Sequence record: PZ349761.1
DNA length: 45,774 nt
DNA from: a phage
Reading direction: 5' to 3' (one strand)
A model generated the notes under the pieces. That model did not search any database and had not been told where the DNA came from. It saw nothing but the letters and a program-made list of their open reading frames with translations. Positions 5,517 through 44,557 of this stretch are shown here, piece by piece. Positions within the stretch are counted from its first letter, which is position 1. Each line of letters begins with the position of its first letter. A program made the position numbers and the translations under genes.

Positions 5517-5741
5517 ATGAGAACATTGAGGCAGATTTTACACGGCTGCAAGAAGCATCACTACGTTTACTATCGTGATATTAAATGGTTCGAGGAGGCT
5601 CATTGCAAAGGTGGTTACAAGACGAAGTTGATATGTAAGAAATGCAGGCACGTGACCAACAGCAAGGTTGATATGATGATTTGCCGTAGCACTCTTGATT
5701 ATATGCGTTACGGGCTCATAAAACCGCCAGTTAAGCCTTAA
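5517..5741 (+). CDS. small Cys/His-rich protein, possible zinc-ribbon
   Basis: CKKHH..HCKGG..CKKCRH..C pattern; in-frame ATG inside track ORF 5493-5741. Confidence 0.4.
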   Translation: MRTLRQILHGCKKHHYVYYRDIKWFEEAHCKGGYKTKLICKKCRHVTNSKVDMMICRSTLDYMRYGLIKPPVKP

Positions 5742-5950
5742 TTGTTAAAAATAGCTTGCACCACTGACCGGAATTATCTAATATTAACCACGTAGACAAA
5801 CGAGCCATCCAAGATGGAACGGCGCACGGAGTGCAACTACTAAGTCCGTTGCTCATTAAGTAGCGCATGCGGCATTAAGACCTAGCGCAAATAGGCAGAT
5901 TAACCGGCTGTATCAGGCAGCCCCGGAGCCGTAACCGGGACTCATTCAAG

Positions 5951-7164: not shown

Positions 7165-8730
7165 ATGTCTTTAGTGTGGGAAGAAATGACCATTCAGGAA
7201 AAGATGGCTGTCAAAGCGATATCAGAGCATAGCTTCGAGGGTTTTCTGCGCTGCTGGTTCCAAATAACACAAGGTGAGCGATACATCCCTAACTGGCATC
7301 ACAAGTACTTGTGCAGAATCATTGACGAGATTATCGCAGGGGAACGCAAGGACACCATCATTAACATAGCTCCGGGCAGCGGAAAGACGGAAATCACATC
7401 AATTCACTTCCCTGTATACTCTATGTTGAAGCTGAAGAAGGTTCGAAACCTTAATATCTCTTTCGCCGACTCAAACGTAAAGCGCAACTCAAAACGAGTG
7501 CGTGACTTAATATCATCAAAGGAGTTCCAGGAACTCTGGCCTTGCAAGTTCGGGACAAATAAGGATGACGAGATTCAGATCGTTGACGACAGCGGAAAGG
7601 TTAGATTCGAGTCCATATCAGCATCAAAAGGAGGCAGGATTACTGGCACGCGTGGTGGTTATATCACCGACACATACAGCGGCGCGGTAATGCTGGATGA
7701 CTTCGATAAACCAGACGAGATGTTTTCATCCGTATACAGGGCAAAGAGTCACACGCTGCTTGGCAATACCATTCGCTCACGCCGCGCTAGCTCGGTAAAA
7801 GGGAAGGCAACTCCAATTATCCAGATTCAGCAGCGACTTCACGTCAATGACTCAACGTGGTTCATGCTTAGCGGTGGTATGGGCATTGATTTTGATTTGG
7901 TGAAGATACCAGCACTGGTTACTGAAGATTACGTTGATACATTACCTGACTGGATTAAACAGCAATTCATTGATGACGTATTATCAAGCGAAAATATCGA
8001 GCGTGACGGAGTGAAGTATTACAGCTACTTCCCAGGGAAAGAGTCCGTGCATGACCTGGTTGCGATGTGGGATAGTGACCCGTACACATTCCTTAGCCAG
8101 TATCAACAAGAACCTGTAGCATTGGGCGGAAATCTTATTAACGTAGACTGGTTCCAGCGTCTTAGTGATACATTCAGGCCTCCAGTTAAGTATGATTACA
8201 GATTCATCACATGCGATACCGCGATGACTACAAAGAGTTATAGTGACTTCTCTGTACTTCAGTTGTGGGGATACAAGGATGCTAAGATTTACCTGATAGA
8301 CCAGCTCAGAGGAAAATGGGAAGCGCCGGAGTTGGAGGCTGAACTACTGGACTTCGAGAAGAAATCAAGGGCAACCAGTCAATCAGATGGCATACTCCGA
8401 AAGATCATCATCGAGAAGAAAGCCTCTGGTATCGGCCTGATTCAATCGGCAGGTAGAGTTATGCGAACACCGATAGAGCCATACGTTCCGGATAACGACA
8501 AGCTGACTCGCGTAATGAGCGCATTGCCACAGATTAAGGCTGGTAATGTCGTTCTTCCAGAGTCTGCGCCGTGGCTAAACGGATTGCTTACTGAGGTTGC
8601 TGCTTTTACGGCAGATGATAGCCACAAACACGACGACCAGATTGACTGTCTAACAATGGCAGTAAACCTTGTACTTAACATTGCGGACGACCCAAAAGCG
8701 CGACTAATGCGCATAGCGGGAATTAAATAG
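7165..8730 (+). CDS. terminase large subunit
   Basis: 521 aa; P-loop-like APGSGKTE near N-terminus, acidic nuclease-type C-terminal half; canonical position before portal. Confidence 0.85.
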   Translation: MSLVWEEMTIQEKMAVKAISEHSFEGFLRCWFQITQGERYIPNWHHKYLCRIIDEIIAGERKDTIINIAPGSGKTEITSIHFPVYSMLKLKKVRNLNISFADSNVKRNSKRVRDLISSKEFQELWPCKFGTNKDDEIQIVDDSGKVRFESISASKGGRITGTRGGYITDTYSGAVMLDDFDKPDEMFSSVYRAKSHTLLGNTIRSRRASSVKGKATPIIQIQQRLHVNDSTWFMLSGGMGIDFDLVKIPALVTEDYVDTLPDWIKQQFIDDVLSSENIERDGVKYYSYFPGKESVHDLVAMWDSDPYTFLSQYQQEPVALGGNLINVDWFQRLSDTFRPPVKYDYRFITCDTAMTTKSYSDFSVLQLWGYKDAKIYLIDQLRGKWEAPELEAELLDFEKKSRATSQSDGILRKIIIEKKASGIGLIQSAGRVMRTPIEPYVPDNDKLTRVMSALPQIKAGNVVLPESAPWLNGLLTEVAAFTADDSHKHDDQIDCLTMAVNLVLNIADDPKARLMRIAGIK

Positions 8731-8744
8731 CACGAATTGCTAAA
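8727..8744 (+). promoter_or_regulatory. conserved palindromic box ATAGCACgaattGCTAAA
   Basis: TAG stop of terminase gene inside box; TATAGT 8765-8770; leader CACACCAACGAGAGG; ATG 8802. Confidence 0.6.
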
Positions 8745-8801
8745 CGCTAGAGCCACGGATGGCGTATAGTTACTTCACACCAACGAGAGGAGAAAAGACA
8801 A

Positions 8802-9176
8802 ATGAAAAACAAATCAAAGGCTTTATATCTTGGAAACACCTATGACGAGTGTTGTGAATTCACTCCGGGAAGAGAGTACGATTTTTACGATCTTGGTGAT
8901 GGATTTATTGGTCTTTGCGATGATAATGATACTGAACGTTGCATTAAAAACGGAACGTTCTACAAGTTTAAACTAATCAATGAGGATCATTTTGTAACTG
9001 AAACTGAGTGCGCATCCATGCAGCCTGGCGCCGATAAAAAACCCGAGTTTAGATATTACATCAATGGCGAAGTGGTTACTAAGGTAAAGTTCGACGATAC
9101 GCTATTATGCGTCAAGGACTTTGAATCTAGTGGGGTTGATACATCATCAATCAAGTTCGAAGTAAAATTCGAGTAA
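8802..9176 (+). CDS. hypothetical Cys-containing protein (124 aa), moron-like insert between terminase and portal
   Basis: Own cassette promoter upstream and own terminator downstream. Confidence 0.55.
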   Translation: MKNKSKALYLGNTYDECCEFTPGREYDFYDLGDGFIGLCDDNDTERCIKNGTFYKFKLINEDHFVTETECASMQPGADKKPEFRYYINGEVVTKVKFDDTLLCVKDFESSGVDTSSIKFEVKFE

Positions 9177-9197
9177 TCAAAAACCGTGTGATAAACT

Positions 9198-9219
9198 AGC
9201 CCCCACATGGGGCTTTTTT
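9198..9219 (+). terminator. rho-independent terminator
   Basis: AGCCCCC-acat-GGGGCT hairpin plus T5. Confidence 0.65.
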
Positions 9220-9232
9220 ATTGGAGAAAAAC

Positions 9233-15139: not shown

Positions 15140-15796
15140 ATGGCTCATTTATCAAACGGCACTCAGGTGTTCGTAGAAGGCTCTCGCGGTGATGCGATTG
15201 ACGTAACTGCAATTTCTAACGCAGTTACCCCTGTTTTAACTGTATCTGACGCTTCTGGTTTGGTCGTTGGTGATTACCTGCTTTTCACCTCTTCTGCTTC
15301 AACGCTTCTGGCTGACAAGCAAGTTCGAGTGACTGCAATCACTGGTACGTCAGTAACTGTTGAAGGTATTGACACCTCCAGCACCACCAAGTTCCCGGCC
15401 GGTTTGACTGGTGAAGTCGTTAAGATCACCTCCTGGTTCGAAGTTCCGTGTGTTCGGGATGTTTCTACTGACGGCGGCGAACAGCAGTTCGTTAACTTCC
15501 AGTGTCTTTCTGATGACCGTGAACAGCAGATTCCGACTTATAAATCTGCGGTAACAAACACCTTTACCTTTGCTCATGAGTACACTAACCCGGTCTATCC
15601 GGTTCTGCGTAACTACGATGAGTCGGGCCAGGTTGTTGCGATTCGCCTGTTCGTACCTCGCGCCCAGGAAATGCGCTTGCAGTCCGGCACTATCGCTTTC
15701 AACGACACCCCTACCATTGGTGTTAACGAAATCGAAACGGTATCCATCGCGGTATCCATTCGTGGTCGACTGTCCTCTGTGGCAGCGGAAGTTTAA
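15140..15796 (+). CDS. major tail (tube) protein
   Basis: 218 aa directly upstream of chaperones and tape measure; followed by strong terminator. Confidence 0.6.
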   Translation: MAHLSNGTQVFVEGSRGDAIDVTAISNAVTPVLTVSDASGLVVGDYLLFTSSASTLLADKQVRVTAITGTSVTVEGIDTSSTTKFPAGLTGEVVKITSWFEVPCVRDVSTDGGEQQFVNFQCLSDDREQQIPTYKSAVTNTFTFAHEYTNPVYPVLRNYDESGQVVAIRLFVPRAQEMRLQSGTIAFNDTPTIGVNEIETVSIAVSIRGRLSSVAAEV

Positions 15797-15802
15797 AACA
15801 CA

Positions 15803-15824
15803 AACCCTCTCCGGAGGGTTTTTT
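15803..15824 (+). terminator. rho-independent terminator
   Basis: CCCTC-tccg-GAGGG hairpin plus T6. Confidence 0.7.
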
Positions 15825-15829
15825 ATTGC

Positions 15830-15847
15830 ATAGCACTTTTTGATAAA
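15830..15847 (+). promoter_or_regulatory. conserved box variant ATAGCACtttttGATAAA
   Basis: 22-nt spacer, TATAGT 15868-15873, CATCGAAACGA 15879-15889, ATG 15907. Confidence 0.55.
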
Positions 15848-15906
15848 GCGCTCATTCAACTTTGATGTATAGTTAACTCATCGAAACGAAATGAGAGATT
15901 AAAGAA

Positions 15907-16155
15907 ATGAATAACGTTAAAAACATCATCAAGATTGCTGCGGTTCTGTTTGCTTTTTATGCGGTAGTTCAGATTATAAACCCAACAGGTGAGGCTGATG
16001 CCAATAGCAAGGCAAACAAATATACTGTTGAATTTGCTAAGGCTGAGCGAGCATGTCAGGAGCTTGTAGGTGGCAAAGTTGACCAAATCATGAAATACGG
16101 CAAAGAGGTTTGTAAGGACTCGGCTGCTAAGATTGCAAAAGAAAACACTAAGTAA
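15907..16155 (+). CDS. small exported/membrane-anchored protein (82 aa), moron-like insert in tail gene cluster
   Basis: N-terminal hydrophobic segment IIKIAAVLFAFYAVVQII; own cassette promoter. Confidence 0.5.
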   Translation: MNNVKNIIKIAAVLFAFYAVVQIINPTGEADANSKANKYTVEFAKAERACQELVGGKVDQIMKYGKEVCKDSAAKIAKENTK

Positions 16156-16193
16156 TAGAATACATACTCACAAACAATAAGAGGATTAACAAA

Positions 16194-16508
16194 ATGGCAA
16201 AGTTCAAACTTTCACTGGCGGCACTCCCAGACTTTAAGCTACCAGTAAAATTTAAGCTGGCTAACGACCAGGATGTAGAGGTTATCTTTACAGTCAAGCA
16301 CAAGAAAACATCTGAGTTGCAGGGGCTGCTTAGCAAGGAAGACTTGAGCACAAAAGAGCTTATTATGGCAATTGCCTCTGATTGGGATCTGGAAGAAGAA
16401 TACAACGAAGATAACGTTAATGAGTTCTCAGACCTTTTCCCGGCCTCAACTGTTGCGCTGACAACTGCTTACATGCAAGCGCTTGCTGGTCAGCGAGTAA
16501 AAAACTAA
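16194..16508 (+). CDS. tail assembly chaperone (gpG-like)
   Basis: 104-aa acidic protein just upstream of tape measure; slippery heptamer A-AAA-AAC at its 3' end. Confidence 0.65.
   Translation: MAKFKLSLAALPDFKLPVKFKLANDQDVEVIFTVKHKKTSELQGLLSKEDLSTKELIMAIASDWDLEEEYNEDNVNEFSDLFPASTVALTTAYMQALAGQRVKN
16499..16505 (+). other. programmed -1 ribosomal frameshift slippery site A AAA AAC
   Basis: Heptamer sits in zero frame 2 codons before the G stop; -1 frame reads directly into ORF 16517-16828. Confidence 0.6.
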
Positions 16509-16516
16509 AACGAGCG

Positions 16517-16828
16517 GTGTATCTACAGTACCAGTCAGAGCCAACTGATGCCGAGCTGGAAGCTATTGGGATGCGCCGCTCTGATTACGAAGATGAAGAG
16601 CCTGAAGTTTTGCACTTCGACGACAACATGATGAAGGCGTGGGACATTTACTGTTCAATGGCTACACAATGGAGAGTCGGGGCTAACGGAGCTACAGGGT
16701 TAGATTACAACGTGCTAAATTTCCTCTTTAGAGTGTATAATGTTTCTGAAGAAGAATTGGTACTCAGCGATTTACGCATCCTTGAAGCTAAGGCTCTTGA
16801 GATGATGGATAACCTGAGAAAAAAATAA
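16517..16828 (+). CDS. tail assembly chaperone T-frame (probably made only as G-T fusion)
   Basis: ORF has no ATG (track start is GTG) and is in the -1 frame relative to G. Confidence 0.55.
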   Translation: MYLQYQSEPTDAELEAIGMRRSDYEDEEPEVLHFDDNMMKAWDIYCSMATQWRVGANGATGLDYNVLNFLFRVYNVSEEELVLSDLRILEAKALEMMDNLRKK

Positions 16829-16846
16829 CCCGCTTCGGCGGGTTTT
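16829..16846 (+). terminator. terminator-like hairpin
   Basis: CCCGC-ttcg-GCGGG plus T4. Confidence 0.5.
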
Positions 16847-25812: not shown

Positions 25813-25840
25813 TAAAGCCCCTTAATTGGGGCTTTTCTTT
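25813..25840. terminator. bidirectional terminator between convergent J and RBP genes
   Basis: AGCCCC-ttaatt-GGGGCT hairpin, T-rich on both sides. Confidence 0.6.
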
Positions 25841-26802
25841 TAGTAGAAGTTTGGGATAAATGGAAGTGCCATTGATATGTTCGTGTCGAAAGGAAACTGA
25901 GCGCCTGTCTGAGTTGAGTAGTTACCTATTACAGATCCAGGAACAGCCCTAACGGAGCCTCCAGACATGCAAACACCCTTGTATCGTAAGTTGTTATACC
26001 CTCCGGTAACTCTAGTTGTAGCGCCGCACCTAAGCAGCGGGAAGAAACCACCATTTATTGACTGATATCCATTGCTTATTTGTATAAATCCACCAAGAAC
26101 GAATGGGCGGCGAACACTTGAAAAAACAATCTGACCAGAACTATTTGACATTGTGAGTCCAGGCCCGGCCGTTGGTGGTTCATTCCTGAATATCACCAGC
26201 TGAACATGGGTACTTGCCGCAACATCATCTGTACCTCCGTAGGTTATATCCCTGCACCATATTGTTGATCCATCTGATTCAAGTGATACGTTTGGATTAT
26301 CCCACTTGCCGAATGGTATTCCGCTAACTGGTAGCGATGCTGCACCGTTAACCTGTATGCCACCAACCCAGGCCGCAGACATTAGCCGCGAGTTGCTTGA
26401 TATAGCAAGGAAATCAGTTGAGTTCTCAACAAGTATTCCAGGACTTGATGAGGATGAAGCCGGTAGTATCTCAAAGCAATTACCAGCAAAGTCAATTATT
26501 CGACCATTAGCACCATTGAAGTTGCTGAGAGTTATCCTGCCAGTTCCGTCATTTACCTTTTGAAACCCGTTCATGTAATAAACTTCGGGTATAACATCGT
26601 AAGCGTCTACGTGTACGGCCTTTGTTGGTAGGCAGAAGACCGTAGAGCCAGGTGACATTGTCAATCCAAAATCCCAAAAACTCGCCGGGGTTGAAAGTCC
26701 ATTAGTATTTATCGAGCCAGTCACCGCAGGCGCCCTTAACCCTGCCGTAATCTCCATAGCTGGCCTTCCATCATTCAGGTCAATCAATATACCTTGTGGC
26801 AT
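25840..26802 (-). CDS. candidate receptor-binding protein (tail tip accessory)
   Basis: About 320 aa Gly/Ser/Asn-rich beta-type protein; ATG overlaps stop of upstream lipoprotein gene (TAATG); position next to J. Confidence 0.45.
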   Translation of the reverse strand: MPQGILIDLNDGRPAMEITAGLRAPAVTGSINTNGLSTPASFWDFGLTMSPGSTVFCLPTKAVHVDAYDVIPEVYYMNGFQKVNDGTGRITLSNFNGANGRIIDFAGNCFEILPASSSSSPGILVENSTDFLAISSNSRLMSAAWVGGIQVNGAASLPVSGIPFGKWDNPNVSLESDGSTIWCRDITYGGTDDVAASTHVQLVIFRNEPPTAGPGLTMSNSSGQIVFSSVRRPFVLGGFIQISNGYQSINGGFFPLLRCGATTRVTGGYNNLRYKGVCMSGGSVRAVPGSVIGNYSTQTGAQFPFDTNISMALPFIPNFY

Positions 26803-27047
26803 TATTTCCACTCCTTACTTCCGTGATCAGCTACTGAGCCACCATAACCGCCGCCAGCCTTGCTTTCAATGCCAGCGTAGCGAATATCAACCTCACCAGC
26901 CGGAACAACTACACCGCCTTTCCACTTAGCTACGCACACGCCGTTTGCTTGTGTTGCACACCACCCATCAGGTCGAGGACCAGAAGAACAACCTACTGTC
27001 ATGATTACTGCTGCGGCGATGATTGAAAGTTTGATTAGGTTAGTCAT
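26802..27047 (-). CDS. small lipoprotein, candidate superinfection-exclusion protein
   Basis: [22 protein letters not shown] signal peptide with lipobox; start set to ATG 27047 downstream of minus-strand cassette. Confidence 0.55.
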
Positions 27048-27095
27048 TTTGTATTCCTCATTAAGTTGTTTCGTTTCGATGGAGTAATAGTACAA

Positions 27096-34268: not shown

Positions 34269-34748
34269 TCAAATCGTGCTGTTTTTCTCTTTCTTCTTCT
34301 GGTTCTCTAATTTAATTTTGCGCCAGGAGCGACATTCAGGCTTTGTGGCTAGTTCAGCCTCAGTAACTACGCGCAGCATGTGACGTTTTTTGCAACGAAG
34401 CGTCAATGGCTTTCCGTTACCGTCGAATTGCAGGTCTGGCCTGCAGAATGTAGCGCGAAAACCTTCTCCATTTCGCTTATAGTAGTTGTGCGAAAGTTGA
34501 GCTCCACGTGCAGAAATCATACCACGCTTAAACCATTCCTCTACAGCCTGTGGCGTTACCTTTAACTGCTTCGCTATATTCGCCTTTGTGCCGAAGAAAT
34601 CAAGAACCATCTCCAGCCGTGCTCGTAAGCCAGCCCTTACTTCATCTTTTAATACGTAGTAGCCTGAAGGTCGTTTACGTTGTTTTTTGTCTTTGGTGCG
34701 GACGGTTCCGTTATTACCGTTAATTGTTCGTTTGTCGACTGAACTCAT
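34269..34748 (-). CDS. putative HTH DNA-binding protein (transcriptional regulator candidate)
   Basis: Basic N-terminus, helix-turn-helix-like IAKQLKVTPQAVEEWFKRG; first gene of minus operon at a divergent control region. Confidence 0.5.
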   Translation of the reverse strand: MSSVDKRTINGNNGTVRTKDKKQRKRPSGYYVLKDEVRAGLRARLEMVLDFFGTKANIAKQLKVTPQAVEEWFKRGMISARGAQLSHNYYKRNGEGFRATFCRPDLQFDGNGKPLTLRCKKRHMLRVVTEAELATKPECRSWRKIKLENQKKKEKNSTI

Positions 34749-40580: not shown

Positions 40581-40823
40581 TTGACAGATAGACAAATGGA
40601 GGATCACATGAGGGAAGTAATCAACGCCGCTACGGCGTCAACTGGAGGGGCAGCGGTAACTGGAGCGGCAACTGGTCAGATGACTATAGCAATAATCAGC
40701 CTTATCGCTTTAATCATTTTTGGTGCGTGGGGTGCTTACTGGAAGTTTAAGGATAGCCAGGCGATTCGGCGCGCTCTTGAATCAGGAGACTTAAAAACAG
40801 CAATCAAGATAAGGAGTAAGTAA
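40581..40823 (+). CDS. holin (pinholin-like, two predicted TMDs)
   Basis: 80 aa; weakly hydrophobic Gly/Ala-rich segment then strongly hydrophobic MTIAIISLIALIIFGAWGAY, charged C-terminus; immediately upstream of endolysin. Confidence 0.55.
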   Translation: MTDRQMEDHMREVINAATASTGGAAVTGAATGQMTIAIISLIALIIFGAWGAYWKFKDSQAIRRALESGDLKTAIKIRSK

Positions 40824-41309
40824 ATGAAGCAGAAGCTGCTAATTAGCGCGGCTACGGCTGCGGCAATATACATCGCAGCGCCGCTTATTGAGCTCGTTGA
40901 GGGTGTGGAGAACAAGCCTTACATGGACATTGCCGGAATCCCTACAGTTTGTTCTGGTATTACTGGTCCTGACGTTGTTTGGGGTAAGACTTACAGCAAT
41001 AGTGAGTGCCGTAACCTGCTGGAGAAACACATCCAGATTCATGCTAAGTATGTTCAGGATGCAGTTACCTACCCAATTGCACCACAGACAAGAGCTGCAT
41101 TAATCAGCTTTAGCTATAACGTTGGCGGCAATGCAATGAGGAAGTCTACCGCTGTAAGGCTAATCAACCAGGGTAAAGTTGAGAAGGGTTGCAACGCTCT
41201 CGGGATGTGGAACAAAGCAAGAGTTAACGGAAAGCTGAAGGTAGTTAAAGGCTTGGTGAATCGCAGGAATGAGGAGATTAAGTTATGTTTAAGTGGATTG
41301 CAGCGTTAG
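40824..41309 (+). CDS. GH24 lysozyme endolysin with N-terminal signal-anchor-release (SAR)-like segment
   Basis: Catalytic triad spacing E-x8-D-x5-T in EGVENKPYMDIAGIPT; N-terminus LLISAATAAAIYIAAPL is Ala/Gly-rich and weakly hydrophobic. Confidence 0.7.
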   Translation: MKQKLLISAATAAAIYIAAPLIELVEGVENKPYMDIAGIPTVCSGITGPDVVWGKTYSNSECRNLLEKHIQIHAKYVQDAVTYPIAPQTRAALISFSYNVGGNAMRKSTAVRLINQGKVEKGCNALGMWNKARVNGKLKVVKGLVNRRNEEIKLCLSGLQR

Positions 41310-44538: not shown

Positions 44539-44557
44539 TTTAGCAATTAGTGCTATT
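44539..44557 (-). promoter_or_regulatory. conserved palindromic box (minus strand reads AATAGCACtaattGCTAAA)
   Basis: Upstream ORF 44540-44791 reads through the box and stops at the TAA of GCTAAA; hairpin AAGCCC-ttct-GGGCTT follows. Confidence 0.55.

Follow-up and report, generated by a model that had tools for sequence, protein, structure and literature searches.

The stretch of DNA analysed here (sequence record PZ349761.1; 45,774 nucleotides (nt), hereafter the window) comes from a phage, and the gene in question is a small open reading frame (ORF) of 82 codons, ORF82, which lies on the plus strand between the major tail gene and the genes of the tail assembly chaperones, an interval referred to below as the slot. 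The major tail gene (15140-15796, +; Pfam Phage_tail_3, 8.6e-68) is followed by a Rho-independent terminator (15802-15829, +), detected by a terminator scan and kept in all orthologous loci, which is composed of an 8-bp stem and loop at 15802-15821 and a T-run extending to about 15829. Directly downstream are found the Drexlerviridae direct-repeat box ATAGCACTTTTTGATAAA (15830-15847, +; 0 mismatches to ATAGCACNNNTTGNTAAA), a spacer of variable sequence but fixed length (15848-15867, +) that sets TTGNTA 22 nt from the -10 element, the -10 element TATAGT itself (15868-15873, +), and a downstream motif, CATCGAAACGA (15879-15889, +), that is conserved in orthologous slots. A Shine-Dalgarno-like GAGAG, read from the sequence (15893-15897, +), stands 9 nt 5' of the ATG at 15907 that opens the ORF82 coding sequence (15907-16155, +; 82 amino acids (aa) plus stop; phrog_22925, an orphan family). 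Residues 1-32 (15907-16002, +) are predicted to be a Sec signal peptide with cleavage after A-D-A, according to n/h/c analysis and the -3/-1 rule, leaving a predicted mature periplasmic domain of 50 aa (16003-16152, +) in the form of a helix-turn-helix hairpin with invariant C50 and C69. Across the 3' end of ORF82, a promoter scan picked up a sigma-70-like TTGCAA-17-TAGAAT (16133-16161, +; 9/12 matches), and beyond it come chaperone G (16194-16508, +; Pfam Phage_TAC_4), chaperone T (16517-16828, +; Pfam DUF1799) and a further scanned terminator (16827-16844, +), which closes ORF82-G-T 5' of the tape measure gene. An earlier note on this DNA had listed the terminator, box, TATAGT, downstream motif, 82-aa ORF, and chaperones, and every one of these was recovered in its place.

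The phage belongs to a well-populated group. A 1.8-kb query around the locus matched 89 phage records, the best being Veterinaerplatzvirus and Guelphvirus coliphages at 91-97% identity, and the gene order of the whole window runs parallel to that of Rtp. Going by the classification of these annotated relatives, the window is assigned to the Drexlerviridae/Braunvirinae, in the Rtp-like branch of the T1-like coliphages. Related Drexlerviridae are termed virulent in the titles of two reports (PMC8421802, PMC7718038), and when 5,426 complete E. coli genomes were searched, none of them matched the slot DNA. The phage being virulent, there is no prophage from which ORF82 could be expressed.

ORF82 matches phrog_22925, a family of unknown function, from end to end (E = 3.6e-54, residues 1-82 of 82), and tblastn located it in 82 phage records, as against 1,141 phage records with major tail homologs. 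Pairwise ratios of nonsynonymous to synonymous substitution rates (dN/dS) range from 0.07 to 0.28, and, as judged from its sequence, ORF82 is a genuine gene under purifying selection. The overlapping minus-strand ORF at 15856-16086 was rejected as a true gene, given that both selection and the profile matches favour the plus-strand frame. The GC content of ORF82 (40.2%) lies below that of the major tail gene (49.9%), chaperone G (44.1%), and the structural block (46.2%), albeit only about 1 standard deviation under the genome mean for windows of the same size.

Extensive searching placed the family nowhere else. No Pfam family, YebO included, was matched at E <= 0.1, and the PADLOC and NCBIfam libraries returned nothing meaningful for ORF82. 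A word-indexed search for remote homologs among 5.8 billion proteins, with both single sequence and profile, retrieved just 37-47 close clusters, and an exhaustive hidden Markov model search of 1.84 billion representatives recovered the ORF82 family alone (as one representative) along with one spurious hydrophobic match. When the profile was run against every PDB chain sequence, with hits accepted up to E = 10, nothing relevant emerged, and Foldseek comparison of the ORF82 models with BFVD and PDB yielded only generic helical hairpins at E > 1. The family is therefore described here as an orphan which, on the searches made, is confined to Rtp-like phages.

The slot itself is occupied in some relatives and empty in others. 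In the Tunavirinae (T1, pSf-2), Tempevirinae (vojen), Webervirus (Sweeny), and Rogunavirinae (Phleasolo, phiKP26), the major tail gene and its terminator are followed by the chaperone gene after 70-115 nt with no insert, which bears out the view that ORF82 is extra DNA relative to kin. Alignment with Phleasolo and Sweeny further demonstrated that the TAGAAT and ACAAACAATAAGAGGA leader lying 3' of the ORF82 stop codon are homologous to the major-tail-to-chaperone gap of the insert-free phages. Downstream of ORF82, the chaperone gene has thus kept its ancestral -10 and leader, and the insert comprises the box promoter, 5' untranslated region (5'UTR), and ORF, set between the terminator and the old leader.

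In Rtp, the slot retains the same terminator, box, -10, CATCGAAACGA-like start, and an identical 5'UTR, aatgagagattaaagaa, but the gene is rtp34, encoding a 128-aa lipoprotein with the lipobox LAGC. Slots of the rtp34 type were encountered in only four phages (Rtp, RobRod40, MM01, and AugustePiccard). Rtp34 thus resembles ORF82 in its slot, terminator, promoter module, 5'UTR, and targeting to the envelope, and differs from it in being a lipoprotein of unrelated sequence (15% in a forced global alignment). The flanking genes tell a different story from the cargo: ACG-M12 is 96%, 95%, and 99% identical to the window in the major tail, chaperone G, and chaperone T proteins, respectively, versus 47% in the slot gene, and for Rtp the corresponding figures are 94%, 93%, and 98%, with an unrelated slot gene. 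Between the window and ACG-M12, the synonymous divergence (dS) amounts to 2.1 in ORF82 and 0.24-0.82 in the flanks, which points to old allele lineages moved by recombination rather than to a fast-evolving copy. A divergent metagenomic ORF82 allele (P0046) sits in the same genomic context, and an IMG/VR search for further slot variants returned 8 loci only, mostly from GenBank phages already known. As far as comparison between genomes reaches, these data show a Braunvirinae-specific slot that is swapped by recombination and carries either ORF82 alleles or an unrelated lipoprotein. In Rao1, an additional ORF of 46 aa (about 1045-1185) with two predicted transmembrane (TM) helices (MILIGMLTAFFYYATGLTFWVSLGAAIGAYFVSALLALIVIALRNR) is accommodated between the promoter and the ORF82 homolog; it matches phrog_16572 weakly and represents a third envelope cargo at the slot.

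A role of the ORF82 product in tail assembly or in the virion would be in keeping with its position in the tail gene cluster and with the lack of a terminator ahead of G and T. Such a role is nonetheless extremely improbable in view of the export signal, the absence of the gene from subfamilies with homologous tails, and its replacement in Rtp by an unrelated lipoprotein while the neighbouring tail proteins remain 93-98% identical. The ORF82 ortholog of phage MSK was also not among the proteins named by means of SDS-PAGE, an assignment that was made there by band size only.

The promoter of ORF82 is one copy of a module repeated across the window. The window has 19 copies of the box where 0.56 would be expected and 8 of TATAGT-N4-TCATCGAAACGA at <=3 mismatches where 0.01 would be, and all but one of the boxes (18/19) are followed by a -10-like hexamer at a fixed distance of 22 nt from TTGNTA, many of the -10s in the window being succeeded in turn by a C(A/C)TCGAAACGA-like sequence. 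Upstream of ORF82, the box is the consensus ATAGCACnnnTTGnTAAA in the direction of transcription, with 0 mismatches and 77 nt to the ATG (consensus about 76). The box, -10, and start motif are conserved in 14/14 orthologous slots, where the spacer is exactly 22 nt long and differs in sequence, and the reading of the earlier note that ORF82 possesses its own predicted box-spacer-TATAGT cassette directly upstream was upheld. The box-22 nt-(-10) architecture is likewise present in Rtp, ACG-M12, and T1, with a looser start motif in T1. Other box sites in the window include those at 1529, 4029, 8727, 37257, and 40215, besides the one at 15830, and at 44539 and 45608 on the minus strand.

The box corresponds to the direct repeat aaATAGCACnnnTTGnTAAAA of phage TLS, noted also in T1, Rtp, and Rogue1, the function of which was left open by the TLS authors with a stoperator, an enhancer, or an UP-like element being suggested (PMC11447400). 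In contrast to that description, each box here keeps a constant distance of 22 nt from a -10 that is accompanied by a conserved start region, and the fixed geometry of box, -10, and start supports a promoter module over a normal -35. The alternative that TTGNTA serves as a normal -35 was rejected on the grounds of the fixed 22 nt to the -10 and the lack of a conserved -10 at 17 nt. A long-noted Drexlerviridae direct repeat is hereby tied to a defined promoter geometry, and the transcription programme of T1-like phages becomes testable.

By its distance from the -10, the transcription start would be A15880, in which case CATCGAAACGA would provide the first 10 nt of the mRNA. The box holds a dyad, TAGCA-N5-TG(C/A)TA (also written TAGCA-N5-TGCTA), the centre of which would then fall near -42. 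Activator sites overlapping the -35 region are typically positioned at about -42. Taken together, the box promoters look like an activator- or regulator-dependent class with a common 5' end of the mRNA, as the sequence pattern suggests. The first 10 or so predicted transcribed nucleotides (ATCGAAACGA) are conserved across the units as well as in Rtp, ACG-M12, and T1. A candidate for the protein that binds the box is a helix-turn-helix regulator of the T1 gp23/Rtp52 type encoded at 34269-34748(-). In T1 (18850, minus strand), pSf-2, and vojen, the box is found inverted in the major-tail-to-chaperone gap, about 15 nt 5' of the chaperone start and facing the major tail terminator, where it might be an antisense promoter or a roadblock.

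The description of the cassette as "early-type" could not be borne out from sequence, the module being a general Drexlerviridae promoter that also precedes replication, recombination, helicase, and lysis genes; in favour of the label, all but two of the 19 boxes (17) are situated beyond the 19-kb structural block. A literature search for a Drexlerviridae transcriptome or start-site map found none.

Only two boxes lie within the structural block, each in front of one of its two most variable, lowest-GC ORFs (8802-9176 and ORF82), a ranking that leaves out one 50-aa antisense ORF of lower GC which is probably not a gene. The second insert (8727-9222) is made up of a box (8727-8744), a -10, the ORF at 8802-9176, and its own terminator at about 9200-9222, and unlike ORF82 it constitutes a full promoter-gene-terminator unit. 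Its product of 124 aa is Cys-rich and without export signal (GC 38%), shares only 42% identity with Rtp22, and is matched over only a third by ACG-M12; T1 has no gene in the equivalent place between the terminase large subunit and the portal.

At ORF82, the idea of such a self-contained unit was contradicted by a terminator scan of 16156-16193, between ORF82 and chaperone G, where no terminator-like site was detected, the next one being at 16827-16844. Since none lies between ORF82 and this site, ORF82, G, and T would form one unit, and they are read as co-transcribed. The weak TTGCAA-17-TAGAAT may add transcription of G and T, judging by its sequence and placement, and in the EC3a record a promoter had been entered by its authors at the position equivalent to 16133-16161. 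This element overlaps the codons of a conserved I-A-K near the C-terminus of ORF82 and reads TTGTAA in ES-type alleles; the conservation of I-A-K may in part be due to the promoter of the chaperone gene. The term "moron" of the earlier note accordingly fits ORF82 only in part: out of five features taken from the Juhala/Hendrix definition (summarised in PMC3594210), ORF82 exhibits two, namely the extra DNA and a promoter of its own, and lacks two, namely its own terminator and expression from a prophage, the fifth being base composition.

With respect to the product, the N-terminus carries the hallmarks of a Sec signal. An n-region, MNNVKNIIK, with lysines K5 and K9 leads into an h-region of 15 residues, IAAVLFAFYAVVQII, after which an invariant N-P-T acts as a helix breaker, and the cleavage motif A-D-A|N obeys the -3/-1 rule, A32 and N33 being invariant across 17 homologs. 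The Hessa-scale sum over a 19-residue window, a rough value of +3 kcal/mol, is more in line with a cleavable signal than with a stable anchor in the membrane. A positional ortholog with 95% identity (OzMSK/Msk records), MSK_000011, is an 82-aa protein encoded at 5578-5826 directly 3' of the major tail gene; it was reported positive by SignalP 4.1 and TMHMM, as one of only two SignalP-positive proteins in phage MSK (PMC8421802). The N-terminal signal or anchor segment of the earlier note was hence confirmed by prediction. A lipobox is lacking in ORF82, there being no Cys in residues 1-49, and the Cys found in the hydrophobic segment of 3 of the 17 aligned alleles is in no case in a lipobox context. 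The predicted mature protein of 50 aa has an isoelectric point of 9.2 and contains the invariant C50 and C69. AlphaFold2 modelled it with moderate confidence as two helices in a helix-turn-helix hairpin (predicted local distance difference test score, pLDDT, 72.9), the full-length model being poor (pLDDT 60).

A protein of this build might act in lysis timing, partnering the holin, or an endolysin of the signal-arrest-release type, either in the periplasm or tethered to the membrane, after the manner of the T4 antiholin RI. T4 RI pairs a short hydrophobic stretch at its N-terminus with a small helical domain in the periplasm, and ORF82 is alike in size and topology; the window also encodes a single-TM holin (40581-40823) and an endolysin (40824-41309) with an N-terminal hydrophobic segment. 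Such a role is nevertheless quite unlikely, as ORF82 lies outside the lysis cassette, homologous lysis genes are found in T1 and other subfamilies that do without ORF82, and Rtp swaps in an unrelated lipoprotein yet keeps a holin that is 99% identical.

The window encodes, on its minus strand, a receptor-binding protein (RBP; 25840-26811(-)) and, adjoining it, a homolog of the exclusion lipoprotein Rtp45 (26802-27095(-)) that possesses a lipobox and is 82% identical to Rtp45, whose mechanism on LptDE has been solved (PMC12685063). The RBP is only 39% identical to Rtp44, a mismatch with the 82% of the adjacent lipoprotein that would be unexpected if the two were receptor-matched. ORF82 varies independently of the RBP. 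Relative to the window, ACG-M12 has an RBP of 97% and an ORF82 of 47% identity, and the Vienna Veterinaerplatzvirus isolates have an RBP of 40% and an ORF82 of 78% identity. In IME253 and JeanPiccard, which are reported to use FepA and LptD as receptor, respectively (PMC8594841), ORF82 shares 94% and 91.5% identity with that of the window, and users of LptD carry either ORF82 (JeanPiccard) or rtp34 (Rtp, AugustePiccard).

These data bear on the proposal that ORF82 is a receptor-masking factor of the Cor/Llp/Rtp45 type, which would bind the outer membrane receptor from the periplasm and block both adsorption and the loss of progeny on debris. Rtp45, T5 Llp, and T1 Cor are, like ORF82, small, exported, Cys-containing proteins of virulent siphophages made during infection, and by analogy with Llp and Rtp45 in particular (PMC12685063) ORF82 could be viewed as one more of them. 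Unlike ORF82, however, they are receptor-matched lipoproteins encoded beside the RBP gene (PMC12685063, PMC8594841). With no lipobox in ORF82, a distance of 10 kb from the RBP gene, an Rtp45 homolog already beside the RBP in the same genome, and alleles uncoupled from RBP type to the extent that near-identical copies occur in FepA and LptD phages, receptor masking is a very unlikely function. The receptor-modifying role raised by the earlier note is consequently disfavoured, the Rtp45-like lipoprotein being the one placed beside the RBP and the ORF82 alleles not tracking the latter.

Very probably, ORF82 is a non-structural cargo gene that was inserted into a slot open to swapping and whose product is exported. 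In position and logic, its closest analogue is the moron gp15 of HK97, which is similarly small, envelope-targeted, equipped with its own promoter, located in the tail operon by the chaperone and tape measure genes, and missing in close relatives (PMC3594210). The two differ in several respects: gp15 is a YebO-like inner-membrane superinfection exclusion protein with which ORF82 shares no sequence relationship; HK97 is temperate and gp15 is made from the prophage, whereas the phage with ORF82 is virulent; a terminator of its own is present for gp15 and absent for ORF82; and sensitivity to gp15 maps to the tail, while the alleles of ORF82 vary without regard to the tape measure or J. Systems of tail-assembly interference (Tai) were also considered and set aside, being located elsewhere and not exported. 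In T4, the small exported proteins Spackle and Imm block post-adsorption entry during lytic growth, which makes them analogous to ORF82 in function only, and neither showed similarity to it in the PDB profile search up to E = 10. No tail lysozyme of the kind that Spackle inhibits is known from T1-like phages.

The mechanism we propose begins with Sec export of the 82-aa precursor and its probable cleavage after Ala32, which would release a 5.5-kDa basic, two-cysteine helical hairpin into the periplasm of the infected cell. This product would act on a component of the host envelope in the lytic cycle, to the advantage of the phage, and the action we prefer is the exclusion of superinfecting or competing phages at a receptor-independent step, that is, periplasmic or inner-membrane passage. 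Exclusion of this kind would complement the receptor-masking Rtp45-like lipoprotein. The explanation as a whole, an accessory exported slot gene acting on the host envelope with the functional guess included, is put forward tentatively as plausible rather than probable, and the receptor-independent exclusion mechanism taken by itself is more doubtful still.

Several points weigh against the proposal. No homology or experiment ties the ORF82 protein to any function, and its periplasmic fold is uncertain in the models. C50 and C69 are about 16 Å apart in the simple hairpin, and an intramolecular disulfide is not obvious. Furthermore, conservation of the hydrophobic segment exceeds that of many signal peptides, which makes an uncleaved membrane anchor possible from the alignment. 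Finally, the ORF82 alleles are also uncoupled from the tape measure (97%) and J (96%) proteins in the comparison of the window with ACG-M12, which argues against a factor tuned to the entry machinery of its own phage in the way of HK97 gp15.

The same accessory gene could alternatively be a counter-defence or host-takeover factor directed against a host or prophage system located in the envelope. The swapping of old alleles between near-identical backbones and the replacement by unrelated envelope cargo would fit variable host factors, and the gene is retained in a strictly virulent lineage. No similarity was seen in PADLOC, Pfam, NCBIfam, or PDB, and sequence data cannot separate this possibility from exclusion; we regard it as unlikely, though less so than the lysis-timing role.

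Kept by purifying selection and exchanged between near-identical genomes, ORF82 is a concrete candidate for a new activity that blocks entry or conditions the envelope, and its target might be a step of siphophage DNA entry that is conserved and takes place in the periplasm or at the inner membrane. The sole characterised exclusion function of Rtp-like phages is the receptor-masking lipoprotein, and these phages are common laboratory and fermentation contaminants as well as candidates for phage therapy. What the analysis adds is the interchangeable nature of the envelope cargos in the slot and the membership of its predicted promoter in a family-wide module. A broader and rather improbable extension is that the slot is a swappable effector locus, housing ORF82 alleles, rtp34, and the Rao1 two-TM peptide as a second, receptor-independent layer of exclusion or competition, and served by an activator-dependent promoter module. 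If true, the module would put about 19 transcription units under a shared regulatory handle.

Among the records related to the window, some near-identical coliphage genomes are filed under unlikely hosts, for example Campylobacter phage A110b and Pseudomonas phage PsgS01F (records MG065688 and PP134917), the latter being equal in length and in identity to the window to E. coli phage UALMA_PCEc3. An ORF82 homolog (protein P0036) on a 46.7-kb contig is similarly labelled Nitratidesulfovibrio liaohensis. These odd-host records are probably contaminants or mislabelled.

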